This document shows positions 2,478-30,200 of a stretch of 34,940 nt of DNA, one piece after another. Source of the DNA: Malassezia furfur (taxonomy: Eukaryota). Below the pieces are notes generated by a model. It ran no database searches. It was given only the letters and a program-made list of their open reading frames with translations, and was not told where the DNA came from. How positions within the stretch are numbered: the first letter of the stretch is position 1; every line of letters begins with the position of its first letter. The stretch is taken from assembly GCA_052055015.1 (NCBI GenBank), contig JBQJIT010000075.1; one strand, 5' to 3'. The position numbers and the translations under genes are program-made.

Positions 2478-3903
2478 CTAGGCGCTCGCCTTGCGCGCGC
2501 CCTTGTGCAGGAACCCGAAGCGCGACTCACGCTCCTTCTTCTTTTTCTTCTTCTCGGCGGCCTGCGCGACAAGCCGCTCCAGCTCGCGCCGCTCGTCGTC
2601 CGTCTCGTCGGGCTCCACCTGCTGGTAAATCGCACCGAGGAAGGCGATGGCGCGCGCGCGCTGCACCAACACCTTGTCGCTGATGCCCTTTTCGTTGAGC
2701 ACGTTGTCAACGACCTGCCGCAGCACGCTGTTGACCTCCCAGCGCGTGCCGCGCCACGTCGCGAGCAGCATCTTGCCCTGCATGTCCTGCTCGAGCTTTT
2801 GCATCTCCTCGTCGCTCAGGTCGCCCTTGTCCTGCGCGCGCGTCAGCTCGTCCATGCTCATCTGCACGTTCATGGCACTGCCCATGACGCCCCACATCTC
2901 CTTGATGGTGCCGCCACGCTCCTTCATGCGGCTCCAAAAGCCGGGCATCCCCAGAAAGTTGCCGCGCTTCGTCTTGAGCCACGTGTTGCTCTTGGTGAGA
3001 TACACGTTGCCAATGGTGTGCAGCAGCTCAACACCGAACGACTCGAGCTTAAGGTCCTCGGCCTCTTCCTTCATGTGCTTGGTAAACTGCTGGGTCGCCG
3101 AGTCGTCCGGGTCGCCGGGGCTCTTGGCCTCGACAAACGGACGGATGCGGTCCTTGAGCTTCTGCGTGAGGTCCTCAATCCGCTTCTTCTCCTTCTCGGC
3201 CTTTTCCTTCTCAAAGGCCTCCAGCTTCTCCTTCTGCTCGGGCGTCATCTTGTGCTTGCCCTTGTCCTTCTCTTTGCCGGCGACCGCTGCCGCGGCGCTC
3301 TCCGCATCCTTGCCGGCGGACGCCTCGGCGGCCGCGGCGGTGCCCTCGCCGTGGATTGTGTCGGTGGGCTTGTTGTGCTCGCGCATCTGGCGCTCCAACT
3401 CCTCGCGCTCCTCGTCGGACATCATGATCTCGGACGCCTTGCTAAAGTCGCGGATCAGGCTAATCTCACCAATCAGGTCATTAAAGCGCTCGCCGCCAAA
3501 CAGGTTGCCAAACTGGGGTCAGTGGGGGATCGCGTACCATCTCGGTGGCCTCCTTGAGGCCGACCTCGTCCGTGGGTTTCCTGGCGTCAGTGCACGCGGA
3601 CCTACTTTTTCCCATAGCGGTCGTAATCCGCGCGCAAGTTCGAGTCGCTCAGCACGCGGTACGCCTCGCCAATCATCTTGAACGTCTCCTCATCGCCACC
3701 CTTGTCGGGGTGGTTCCGGATCGCCGCCTTGCGGTACGCCTTCTTCAGATCAAGCTCGGTGGCGTCGCCACGCACACCGAGCAGCTCGTAGTACTCCATA
3801 TCCTGGCGCGTCAGCACCAGCCGCCGCGCAAACTACGTACCACAATCTTCTCGCCATCGCGGCTAATGTTGGCCGCCTGCGTCGCGCTCGCCGCCTCGCT
3901 CAT
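2478..3903 (-). CDS. DnaJ/Hsp40 with J domain and DnaJ-X domain (Djp1/Caj1-like); introns 3803-3840, 3581-3605, 3513-3537
   Basis: J domain YYELLGV...[17 protein letters not shown] with the HPD motif. Spliced [19 protein letters not shown] and [18 protein letters not shown] are typical of DnaJ-X proteins. Confidence 0.88.
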
Positions 3904-4182
3904 CGTGGGCCTGGACAAAATAGTGGGTTGGCCACGTGGGTTCCTAACCCAGGGCGGCACGCGCCGCCAGGCACGCACGTCCCAGCTCGGGCCCTACACG
4001 CTGGAGCAAGCCGTTTTGGTGGACTAAGGACACATACACTAGTCCGGCGCCGCGACCAGCACCCGCACGACGGGGCCGGCACACGGCACTATAGGTGCAT
4101 GCGCAAACATGCAGTCATGGGTAAAGCAAAGACACTCTCGCGTGCCATCGAAACAGAGAAGCCGTCACGCGCACCACGCCAT

Positions 4183-5229
4183 TTAGGCGCTCTCGCGCTG
4201 CTTCATCTTCTGGTCGCGCTCCTCGGTGATCGTGAGCTTGACACCACCGCCGCGGGGCATCGAGATCCAGCGCTTCTCGCTGTCGCCAATGACGAACACG
4301 TTGCTGAGACGCGTCGAGAACTCACGGCCAGCGGGGTCACGGACGTGGGCAATGTCGAAACCACCGTGGTGGCGCTCGCGGTGCAGGATCACACCGGCAC
4401 GGCCAATGTTACGGCCACCCGTGATCATGACCTGCGCACCCGTGTCAAACTTGATAAAGTCGACCATCTTCTGCGTGTTCACGTCAAACTTCACCGTGTC
4501 GTTCACGCGCACAAGCGGGTCGGGGTAGCGCAGCGTACGGCCATCGTGGGTGACGATGTGCGGCACACCCTTGGCGCCGAGCTCGACGCGCTTGACCTTG
4601 AGGAGCTTGTACGAGGCCTCCTCGGGCGTGATGCGGTGCACCACAAAGCGGCCCTTGACGTCGTACAGGATGCGGAAGTGCTCACCCGAGCGCTCGATCG
4701 ACACCACGTCCATGAAGCCGGTGGGGTAGGTCGGGTCGGTGCGGACCTTGTTGTCGACCTTGATGATGCGCTGCATGGTGATGAGCATCACCTCGCGACC
4801 GGTGAGCGCGTACTTCAGGCGGTTGCGGAGCAGGACCTGGCGGTTAGTAGCTGTTCACCAAATCGCCCCGCTTGCACACCACGGCCCCGTGCGACTCGTC
4901 AGACGCGATTCGTAGAAAAGTATCCGCACGCCGTTGCCGGCATAGGAAAGCCATGCATGATCGTGGAAAAGTCATCGTCCAAGCAAGCACGGGCGGTGTG
5001 TGGGCACAAGCAGGGTGCCCGTCGTGGGCACTGTGTACGTACCACCAGGGGGAGCGACTCACGGAGCTTGTGAGGACCGGTGCTGGGGCGCGGCGCATAA
5101 GTGCCGGACAGCTAGAGAAGCGTTAGTATCCGCTCTTTCGTGCACAACAAGTGCCGCACGTACCTTGTCCAGCAGCCACGAGTGAGGGGCAGCAAGGTGC
5201 TTCAGGTGGTGACGCGGGCCGCGAACCAT
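4183..5229 (-). CDS. RPS4: 40S ribosomal protein S4 (eS4); exons 5229-5164, 5111-5043, 4836-4183
   Basis: Spliced [61 protein letters not shown]..., then [14 protein letters not shown] and [12 protein letters not shown]. Introns 5112-5163 and 4837-5042 have GTACGT donors and CTAAC branch sites. Confidence 0.97.
4895..4983 (-). ncRNA. Candidate intronic box C/D snoRNA in RPS4 intron 2
   Basis: Box C-like ACGATGA (4978-4972) and box D CTGA (4902-4899). Flanking complementary arms CACACC..CCCGTGC..GCTTG / CGAGT..GCACGGG..GGTGTG. Internal GCAA-tetraloop hairpin (4927-4944). 12-nt antisense CATGCATGGCTT to conserved 18S AAGCCAUGCAUG. Confidence 0.7.
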
Positions 5230-27210: not shown

Positions 27211-30200
27211 CTACAGGTTCGGCGCCTCGTCATCGCTCGAGTCCGAGTCGTCGCTCGGGGGGAGCGGCGTGTCGCCCAGATACGACGACGGCACGTCGAG
27301 GGCGGGCGCGGGCGGCGGCTGCGCGGACGATCCGCCCGCGGCGATATGGGCGCGCGTCTTTTCGCTTGACTTGCCGCCGATCTCCCGCGTGGTGCGGCGG
27401 CGGTAAAAGAGGAGGTAAGCTGCGCTGCTCTTCACCGTCTCGGGGTCGCTGACCGGGCGCACGCTCGAGTCGTCGTAGTTGTACCACCGCCCGTCCTCGG
27501 GGTTCTTGGCAAACGCCGTATAGTGTCCGCCGCCGAGCCCGCCAAAGTGGTTGTCCACCGCGTAGAGATCGTAGATGGGCCGGTCTGCGGCGACCTCGTC
27601 GTCGTGTGCATCGTGTGCGACGCGGAACTTGTCGCCCTGCGTCACGGCCGGCGGCGCGTCGAGCTGCAGCTCGTGCACGAGCTGCGTCCCCACAACGCGG
27701 TCGCTCAGGTCGAGGCCAGTGATGGGGAAGTCGATGAAGTTGTCGAGCTTGTCGCGAGCCATGCGCCCCGCGCTGAACCGCTTGAGGTGCACGACGAGGA
27801 TGTCGGGCACCTTCCAGAGGTCAAACTTCTTCATCGCCTGGCGGAACTCTTTGCACTGCGGGCAGTACCACAAGTCGTGCTCGCCGAGCTGCTCGGCGCG
27901 GGTGAACTCGTCGAGGCAGTCGTCCAGCTGCAGCTTGGGCGTCCGCCGCCGTCCATCGGCGAGCTGCGCCGAGGTCTTTTCGAACTCGGGGTCCTGCACC
28001 TCGCGCACTTCGCCCCACGCATGGCTCGGCGGCGGGGCGTCAAAGAGCGCGTGCGCTGCCGCGGCGTCCCAGAGGCAAAAGAGCGCGCCGCCGTTGTACA
28101 GCGGCGGCCACCCCGCGGGGTCGGTGAGCCGCGCCATGCGCGCGTCGAGCGGCTCGGTGGTGTGCTCGGAGGCCTCGTCGCCGCGGTGCATCGTCTCGTC
28201 GCTGGGCGGCGCGGCAAAGCGCACCTCGCACACGGGCGTGTCCGGCGTGGCGCCCTCGGAGCGCGGCGCAGACGCCATGCGCTCGCGGAAGGCCGCGACG
28301 GAGTCGGTGGGGTGCTTGCTGAAGCGGATGTACTGCCGCACCATGGCGTCGACGATCGCGTCGGCGTTGCGCGCATCGGCCTGGGCGACGGTCACAAAGA
28401 AGGGCAGGCCAAAGCCCTCGCCGAGCGTCCGGCGGAAGGAGCCGAAGCGGCTCGCGCCCGAGGCATCGGGCGCCAGGCACGAGTACACGGGCAGCGTCAC
28501 GCTCTCGGACGCGGCGGGCGGCGCAAAGCTCGTCTCGAGGTCGGCAATCGAGCGCGTGGCGCCCTTCAGGAAGCCGAGGCGCCCGCCGGCCTTGCGCGCG
28601 GCGGGCATCGCAAATGGCGCGGGCTGCTCCCAGAGGTAGACGTAGTCGCCCGCGCTGATGTCGCGCACCGGCTCGTAGTCGGCGAGCCAGCGGTAGACGT
28701 GGTGCGACCACACCTCGCCGACGACGAGCGTCGCCGCGTCCAGGCCGAGCACGGCCGCCGCCTTCTCGCGGAGCTGCGCGACGGTGGCCGTGGCGGGCAG
28801 CTGCACGTCGAGCTGCGTCACCGCCGGCGTCGCCGTACGGCCGACGACGTACACGCGCCCGCGCCACTTGCGCGTGTTGGGGATCGGCAGCGTGAGGTAC
28901 ATGAACGGGTCGAACTTGATCGACACCTTGTCGCACACCGGGCACACGAGCGTGCTGCGGTACTGCCCCTGGAACAGGTCGACGATCATCGAGTCGTTGC
29001 GCGCCTTGTAGATGTCCCACTGCTGCTGCGCAAAGCGCACCATGTCGGCGTCGCTGCCACCCGGCCAGTCGGGCGCCTCGATGTACGGCTTCTGGAGGAT
29101 GCGGTTCAAGTCCTCGTGCAGGCCGTCCAGCAGGAACGCAAGCAGCTCCTGGCTGTCCTGCTGCGCGTAGCCGGTAAACTGCGGCGCAAAGCGCGCGAGC
29201 GCCGTCTTGAACTCGCGCGGGACGACCGCGCCGCTGTGCTGCGCGCTCCACAGCTGCTGCATCAGCCGCCCAAATGCGCCGGCGATCGCGCCGCCCATCC
29301 CGAGCGGGTTGTCCGTGTTGATCTCGTCGTAGTGCACCTCGTGCAGAAAGTAGCGCTGCAGCTCGGGCGTGTTGCTCAGGCACTGCAGCGCGCTGTTCAT
29401 GAAGCACGTGTTGCCCAGGTTCGCCAGGCCGCGCAGGCCACGCACCGCGCCGGACGCGCCGCGCGCACTGCGCGTCAGCCGCATCGGCGCCAGATGCACC
29501 TGCCAGTGCCCGTCGGTGCGCACGTCCACCGCGAGCACGCTCTGCGGCGCATCGAGCTGCAGCGCACCGAGCGTCGCGCTCTCGGCGCCCTCGACGACTT
29601 CGGCGAGCGGCACGACGGTGCGCACGTCGACCTCGGCCACGACGCCGCCCTGCGCCTCGGCGCGCGTGCGCAGCGACGCCGGCACACGCACAAAGCGCAG
29701 GTCCGCATCGTCCACACGCAGCGCCAGCACCGCGCGCGTCTGCGCCTTGAGCTTGCCGAGCGTCGACGCAGCCGACAGCGTGAGGCTCGGCACGCTCGTC
29801 GGCGCCGCGCCGGGCGTGCCGATCCGCACGAGGTCGAGCGTGGGGGGGAACAGCTCGATGCGCGGCGCGTGCGTCGCGTGCGCGCCCGCAATCACGGCGC
29901 ACGGCAGCGCGGGGCCGCGCTGCCCGTACTGCGCCACGAGCTGGTCCCAGGCCGCGCGGGGCACCAGCTCAAAGTCGATGCCCTCCATCGTGCCCATGCG
30001 CAGGCGCTGCGTCCCAGGGACGTGCAACGCGGTCGTGTCGATCTCCGTCGTGCCCGCGGGGTCCGCGATAAACGTCTTGTACCAGCGCGCGGGCACCACG
30101 TACCACGTCTCGCCGATGCGCGGGCGCGCGGCCTTGGCGGCCGCGACGTCGCGCACAAGGGGGTCGGCCGATCGCGCATCGTGCAGCTGCAGCTCCGGGT

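Follow-up and report, generated by a model that had tools for sequence, protein, structure and literature searches.

The RPS4 gene of Malassezia furfur raises the question of why a fungus of this kind would keep a long intron. Malassezia has a small, compact genome with very short introns, as described in a published account (PMC7426719), and the second intron of RPS4 is 4 to 8 times longer than its neighbours. The window analysed here is the whole stretch of 34,940 nucleotides from contig JBQJIT010000075.1. Among eight long ORF products of the window, four fall exactly into protein clusters with named members from Malassezia furfur and M. brasiliensis, which places it in the furfur group. Comparison of its sequence with known RNAs indicates that RPS4 intron 2 very probably encodes a box C/D snoRNA of the type of Nc CD4, an RNA detected in Neurospora crassa. 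A snoRNA at this place would explain the retention of one such intron in a compact, short-intron genome.

The host gene and the architecture of the intronic element

RPS4 (eS4) is a minus-strand gene whose model gives a product of 262 amino acids, with the exons assigned by translation and by Pfam matches (Table 1). The other introns that can be read are RPS4 intron 1 (52 nt) and three introns of the adjacent DnaJ-domain gene (38, 25, and 25 nt). The original prediction had put intron 2 at about 8 times the typical length. Measured against these four introns, a small sample, it is indeed long, and the exact factor holds only roughly.

Table 1. Features of RPS4 and of the candidate snoRNA in its second intron, in order of the minus strand (5' to 3'); positions are those of the window.
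Feature	Position	Strand	Description
RPS4 (eS4) exon 1	5164..5229	-	ATG at 5229-5227; 22 codons; read from sequence; 5229-5166 matches Pfam RS4NT positions 1-19, E 1.6e-07
RPS4 intron 1	5112..5163	-	52 nt; GUACGU ... UACUAAC ... UAG; between two exons matching RS4NT
RPS4 exon 2	5043..5111	-	23 codons; Pfam RS4NT positions 22-37, E 2.4e-06
RPS4 intron 2 (putative snoRNA host)	4837..5042	-	206 nt; GUACGU 5' splice site; branch site CUACUAAC at 4850-4843; CAG 3' splice site
External helix, 5' arm	4985..5013	-	CUGCUUGUGCCCAC ... CCCGUGC; flanking intron
Predicted mature box C/D snoRNA	4894..4984	-	~91 nt, from stem arm GCUUG to partner CGAGU; both ends predicted
Box C, ACGAUGA	4972..4978	-	6/7 to consensus RUGAUGA; position 2 is C, not U; both GA dinucleotides present
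D' antisense element, CAUGCAUGGCUUU	4947..4959	-	first 12 nt complementary to SSU nt 46-57; fifth nt upstream of D' pairs with C49; identical string in Nc CD4
D' box, degenerate, CCUA	4943..4946	-	2/4 to CUGA; aligned by eye to CUGA of Nc CD4
Internal hairpin, UGCCG-GCAA-CGGCG	4929..4942	-	between D' and C'; -12.5 kcal/mol with flanks; 4/200 shuffles equal or better
C'-like element, UGCGGA	4923..4928	-	4/6 to UGAUGA; place backed by internal repeat
D-side stretch, CUUUUCUACGAAUCGCGU	4903..4920	-	no rRNA target found
Box D, CUGA	4899..4902	-	exact; near the 3' end
External helix, 3' arm	4868..4893	-	GCACGGG ... GUGGUGUGCAAGCGG; flanking intron
RPS4 exon 3	4183..4836	-	217 codons and stop at 4185-4183; translation; Pfam Ribosomal_S4e 1.8e-33, 40S_S4_C 2e-23, KOW 1.2e-4

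Three structural features had been predicted for intron 2, and all of them are present. A box C-like ACGATGA (4978-4972) and a box D CTGA (4902-4899) were said to lie about 80 nt apart, and the span from the start of box C to the end of box D is 80 nt. A GNRA hairpin was placed between them, and a hairpin with a GCAA loop is found at 4942-4929. The boxes were described as enclosed by an extended external stem, and its stated segments, GCTTG/CGAGT, CCCGTGC/GCACGGG, and CACACC/GGTGTG, all occur at intron 2 on the minus strand. The outer register favoured by the folding program is longer (CTGCTTGTGCCCAC/GTGGTGTGCAAGCGG, or CUGCUUGUGCCCAC/GUGGUGUGCAAGCGG as RNA), and with this register the external helix comprises ~26 bp in three segments. 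The duplex formed by the 40-nt flanks has an energy of -47.1 kcal/mol, compared with -31.2 +/- 4.4 kcal/mol for shuffled flanks, of which 2 in 500 are equal or better.

The geometry of the boxes was judged by the K-turn rules known from the literature. The terminal stem GCUUG/CGAGU abuts box D, a 3-nt bulge (G, A, C) precedes the first GA of box C, and the inner stem behind the tandem GA can be extended by G6-C1, A7-U, and C-G pairs. By these rules, the predicted arrangement fits a C/D K-turn. Taken on its own, the 91-nt RNA is no more stably folded than its shuffles (z 0.0), which is usual for C/D snoRNAs. The 5' splice site is 58 nt away from its predicted 5' end, and 54 nt separate box D from the branch A. 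For Neurospora intronic snoRNAs, Liu et al. (2009, PMC2780460) give 41-60 nt as the typical distance to the 5' splice site, and the position of the candidate inside intron 2 is within this range. The ends of C/D snoRNAs are trimmed ~5 nt from the boxes, according to Canzler et al. (2018, PMC5824354).

An arrangement of this sort is rare by chance. Both strands of the window were scanned for NNGANGA with at most one deviation from RUGAUGA, followed 45-130 nt downstream by an exact CUGA and flanked by a stem of at least 5 bp in K-turn register. The scan returned two matches in the window, the intron 2 element and a second at 3693-3587, and none in each of 20 shuffled windows. The match at 3693-3587 falls within a coding exon of the DnaJ gene and counts as a false positive.

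The candidate D' guide and its counterpart in Neurospora

A box C/D RNA of this layout would be expected to carry a guide upstream of D' or of D, and a 12-nt complement to 18S at about nt 46-57 had been proposed for the D' side. The rRNA reference came from a metagenome scan anchored on the ITS4 primer site, which gave 110 rDNA loci, 4 of them with complete LSU and none of them Malassezia rRNA. In two of these rDNA units, L037 and L048, complete SSU, 5.8S, and LSU were delimited by Rfam. In both, SSU nt 46-57 are exactly complementary to the segment CATGCATGGCTT (CAUGCAUGGCUU as RNA), located at 4959-4948. This segment is matched in 15 metagenomic rDNA loci, where at most 19 loci extend that far upstream, and no other part of the intron has an exact complement of at least 12 nt that recurs across rDNA loci. 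A single nucleotide lies between the guide duplex and CCUA, and C49 stands opposite the fifth nucleotide upstream of this D' box. The +5 rule, applied to the degenerate D', had been said to point to about this position, and Nc CD4 is predicted for the same site.

Complements of this length are not exceptional in themselves. When the 69-nt interior is shuffled 2000 times, a complement of at least 12 nt to these rRNAs arises 62 times; of 2000 random segments of the window, 51 contain one, and the whole window contains 43 such 12-mers. Since ~3% of controls reach it, the guide complement taken alone is weak evidence and no more than suggestive. Bulge-tolerant duplex energies against the two complete rDNA units proved non-discriminating as a measure and were dropped (on the D' side, 10 of 40 shuffles were equal or better). 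A scan of viral contigs for an 18S 5' motif gave one chimeric contig with only ~80 nt of 18S and without an Rfam rRNA match.

The D side offers no comparable pairing. An ungapped search that admitted G-U pairs and mismatches, run over the 110 rDNA loci (4 with full LSU, none from Malassezia), gave only weak, G-U-rich pairings for the stretch before box D, and in the bulge-tolerant comparison with the two complete units 38 of 40 shuffles were as good or better. The original prediction had recognised no target for this segment, and none is found in two complete rDNA units either. The D-side stretch is unlikely to act as a guide.

The deciding result comes from Neurospora. Nc CD4 (EU780928) is an 81-nt RNA from chromosome V of Neurospora crassa, identified by cDNA cloning and Northern (Liu et al. 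2009, BMC Genomics 10:515, PMC2780460). Table 1 of that paper lists its target as 18S-Cm49, with a 13/0 match and a D' guide, and the duplex is given in Additional file 4. The location is reported as just 'Intron', with the host gene unnamed. Table 1 lists no homologue in S. pombe, S. cerevisiae, Arabidopsis, or human, and the missing S. cerevisiae entry agrees with the earlier remark that S. cerevisiae is not known to be methylated at C49. Among literature on methylation at Cm47-Cm51 or C49, the Neurospora entry was the sole one found, with the other matches referring to 5.8S, tRNA, or longer numbers such as Cm473.

The intron 2 element and Nc CD4 have in common the 14-nt string CAUGCAUGGCUUUC, which ends inside D', at its first letter (compared by eye with the one published sequence). 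The window contains this 14-mer a single time, and 100 shuffles give no match to it even at one mismatch. It is on the strength of this match that the intron 2 element is read as a probable CD4-type box C/D snoRNA. The earlier proposal of an intronic box C/D snoRNA that guides at about 18S C49 has here a cloned and Northern-verified RNA with exactly that predicted function (Liu et al. 2009, PMC2780460).

The likeness extends to the layout of the two RNAs. By eye, the published Nc CD4 sequence runs from AUGAUGA through 11 nt, CAUGCAUGGCUUU, CUGA, a 5-bp hairpin (AGUCC/GGACU), a C'-like UGAUAGA region, and a short D-side stretch to CUGA. The Malassezia element runs from ACGAUGA through 12 nt, CAUGCAUGGCUUU, CCUA, a hairpin with a 5-bp stem, UGCGGA, and 20 nt to CUGA. 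Both are intron-encoded, with a predicted D' guide to 18S C49 held in equal register, a hairpin straight after D', and a C'-like element. The length is 80 nt from C to D in the Malassezia element and 81 nt in Nc CD4, and for neither is a D-side target given, none being listed for Nc CD4 in Table 1 and none being found for the Malassezia element.

The differences are concentrated in the boxes and in the sequence around them. Box C is ACGAUGA in Malassezia and AUGAUGA in Nc CD4, D' is CCUA in Malassezia and CUGA in Nc CD4, and the guide duplex measures 12 bp in the former and 13 bp in the latter. The spacers and D-side stretches are unrelated, and everything outside guide and boxes differs, as would be expected for a single-guide snoRNA across two phyla of Dikarya. 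The Malassezia element belongs to a basidiomycete (Ustilaginomycotina) and has RPS4 as its host and a ~26-bp external helix, whereas Nc CD4 belongs to Neurospora crassa, with a host described simply as 'Intron'.

A proposed pathway and its competitors

The pathway proposed for the candidate comprises RNA accumulation, protein binding, and C49 methylation, each of them predicted. The snoRNA would be transcribed within the RPS4 pre-mRNA, where the 5-bp terminal stem and the long external helix in the flanking intron would juxtapose boxes C and D. The resulting C/D K-turn would recruit the core proteins Snu13, Nop56, Nop58, and fibrillarin. Splicing and debranching would free the intron, and exonucleases would trim the RNA to ~90 nt. 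In the pre-ribosome, the D' element would then base-pair with 18S nt 46-57, and C49 would be 2'-O-methylated by fibrillarin.

Several observations bear on how readily this pathway can be accepted. The C at position 2 of box C counts against it, as this position may be near-invariant in fungi. In Canzler et al. (2018, PMC5824354), the positions of fungal C/D boxes are described as near-invariant, at 99.7% or more for 'the remaining positions', a phrase whose coverage of box C is ambiguous. The same source describes its snoRNA set as gathered by a canonical-motif search. The D' box is less constraining. In that study, each D' position varies in 15-45% of fungal snoRNAs, so a degenerate D' is not disqualifying.

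The original prediction had named Rfam as a check, and this one did not come out in its favour. Over the whole window, Rfam gives no match at the gathering score, and at E<=10 it gives three chance-level matches, all on the other strand, so that the intron element is unmatched on its own strand even at the looser threshold. The result fits a family absent from Rfam, yet gives no support. The supplements of a small-RNA paper on M. sympodialis contain no read with the guide string.

The alternative that survives best accepts that a snoRNA is made and holds that it does not methylate. It would pair transiently with 18S nt 46-57 as an early chaperone of the 5' domain, in the manner of domain A of U14, or would accumulate as a functionless remnant. 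The deviation in box C is in keeping with such an RNA, and so is the behaviour of the internal boxes. In a simple fold, D' (CCUA) and C' (UGCGGA) form no K-loop and instead lengthen the hairpin as a plain helix, which makes competence for the predicted C49 methylation uncertain. Cm49 is a prediction in Neurospora too, where primer extension verified other sites (PMC2780460, section 6). Set against this, D' degeneracy at the rates cited above is common in fungal guides that are taken as active (PMC5824354), and the guide keeps the exact register of Nc CD4 relative to D', a feature that is relevant to methylation and irrelevant to mere pairing. A snoRNA that does not methylate is therefore judged unlikely, and a methylation guide of the Nc CD4 type is the preferred reading.

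A second alternative dispenses with the RNA altogether. The external helix would be an intron 'zipper' only, joining the 5' splice site and the branch site, while the boxes and the 18S complement would be products of chance, with no stable RNA made. With the helix closed, ~27 nt remain between it and the 5' splice site and ~17 nt between it and the branch A, so the folded intron would show its splice signals at about the normal spacing of Malassezia introns, the neighbouring ones measuring 25-52 nt. Stems of this kind are known in yeast introns. The fold of the whole of intron 2 (MFE -79 kcal/mol) is only mildly better than that of its shuffles (z -1.79), which also agrees with a zipper. Such a reading leaves the enclosed box C/D pair unexplained, since the helix holds the pair in exact K-turn register and this pattern is absent from the 20 shuffled windows. 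It would further have to attribute to chance a 14-nt string that is identical to one in a verified Neurospora snoRNA and stands at the equal relative place. A zipper with no snoRNA inside it is accordingly very improbable. A zipper role and a snoRNA can coexist.

The last alternative, that the element is the missing U14 of basidiomycetes, is hardly credible. In U14, also a box C/D RNA, box C is followed by a stretch complementary to the 18S 5' domain, and the fungal versions have a central hairpin; the intron 2 element has a similar architecture and a complement in the 18S 5' domain. The U14 family is described as undetected in Basidiomycota by Canzler et al. (2018, PMC5824354). Against the identification, the element has no match to U14 in Rfam (RF00016), it matches Nc CD4, which is a separate gene from Nc CD37 (the Neurospora U14), and other basidiomycetes have U14 candidates above the Rfam threshold (PMC9849065). 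The Malassezia element pairs with nt 46-57, which is not the site of U14 (snR128 / SNORD14 / Nc CD37). The identity was rejected on the finding that neither the domain A nor the domain B string of Nc CD37 turns up anywhere in the window, even at up to 3 mismatches.

Position among known fungal snoRNAs

With the Nc CD4-type snoRNA as the preferred reading, much of the picture is familiar. C/D snoRNAs within introns of ribosomal-protein genes are already known, and so is the Nc CD4 / 18S-Cm49 family (snoStrip CD_4). The occurrence in a basidiomycete, the location in an RPS4 intron, and the atypical boxes are possibly new. Lim et al. (2021, PMC8476143) report that retained introns in intron-poor fungi, with Malassezia among the species studied, host snoRNAs in ribosome-related genes, and their paper contains 0 mentions of RPS4. 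A literature search on snoRNA together with 'ribosomal protein S4' in fungi found nothing relevant, and the name Malassezia is absent from the main text of Canzler et al. (2018, PMC5824354). The genome annotation of M. sympodialis was reported to be without snoRNAs (PMC5209728).

The intron 2 element is thus a concrete candidate for a snoRNA gene where the annotation of Malassezia had none. If it is confirmed, the CD4 / 18S-Cm49 guide, known from filamentous ascomycetes, would also be present in a basidiomycete yeast, and the element would predict an rRNA methylation without a listed guide homologue in baker's yeast, fission yeast, Arabidopsis, or human (Liu et al. 2009). Its use would be in annotation and in the study of how snoRNAs and their host introns evolve, and specialists would find it unsurprising.

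A broader reading that joins these points is tentative and, taken as a whole, rather doubtful. The C49 guide would predate the split of Ascomycota and Basidiomycota and would have switched host genes. Its weakened boxes (ACGAUGA, CCUA) would survive in Malassezia, where introns measure 25-50 nt, because the ~26-bp helix does double duty. It would fold the C/D motif for snoRNP assembly, and it would zip the 206-nt intron to a length that a short-intron spliceosome handles. The same double duty would couple the splicing of RPS4 to the output of a ribosome-modifying RNA. That the external helix also assists splicing is speculation.

A parallel described for the retention of such an intron is snR59/snR39 in RPL7 (Lim et al. 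2021, PMC8476143). There, as would be the case in Malassezia, the intron of a ribosomal-protein gene in an intron-poor fungus is kept as the host of a C/D guide, which is co-expressed with a ribosomal protein. The Malassezia candidate differs in its host, RPS4, and in its family, and its predicted target is 18S C49, whereas that of snR59/snR39 is 25S A807.

Internal repeat of the candidate intronic snoRNA and a hairpin in its intron

The candidate box C/D snoRNA within intron 2 of RPS4 carries a 12-nt direct repeat, the two copies of which are identical at 11 of 12 positions and lie 51 nt apart. One copy is immediately 3' of box C, and the second is immediately 3' of the C'-like element. This arrangement suggests either an internal duplication as the origin of the two halves of the molecule or a single common partner with which both copies pair. 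No rRNA target for the repeat was found in the rDNA references, which are metagenomic loci and not Malassezia rRNA. The Neurospora crassa snoRNA Nc CD4 has no counterpart of the repeat. The intron also holds a small hairpin, 11 nt past the 5' splice site and immediately beside the point where the long external helix begins.

In IMG/VR, a contig labeled viral (L001, 2700-3343) joins ~80 nt of a eukaryotic 18S 5' end to unrelated GC-rich coding DNA. Rfam returned no rRNA match on this contig, which is probably an assembly chimera.

Features on the minus strand and their positions in the window
Feature	Position	Strand	Description
12-nt direct repeat	4961-4972 and 4910-4921	minus	ACUUUUC[C/U]ACGA; within candidate snoRNA
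Small hairpin	5015-5031	minus	GUGCCC-ACGAC-GGGCAC; RPS4 intron 2
DnaJ-domain gene	about 3500-3910	minus	adjoins RPS4; YYELLGV ... HPDKGG ... motif
Box C/D-like pattern	3587-3693	minus	AUGAGGA ... CUGA, 5-bp stem; pattern scan

The adjoining DnaJ-domain gene

Three introns interrupt the DnaJ-domain gene, all of them very short (38, 25, and 25 nt). They start with GUAYGY or GUAGGU, carry CUGAC branch-like sites, and illustrate the tiny-intron regime of this genome. The second box C/D-like pattern sits inside a coding exon of this gene and is read as a false positive.

Base composition

The G+C content is ~72% at 1-2000 and 28001-30000, compared with 60-65% across most of the window. Several long, overlapping ORFs occur on both strands within these two stretches, as expected for DNA that is very GC-rich.
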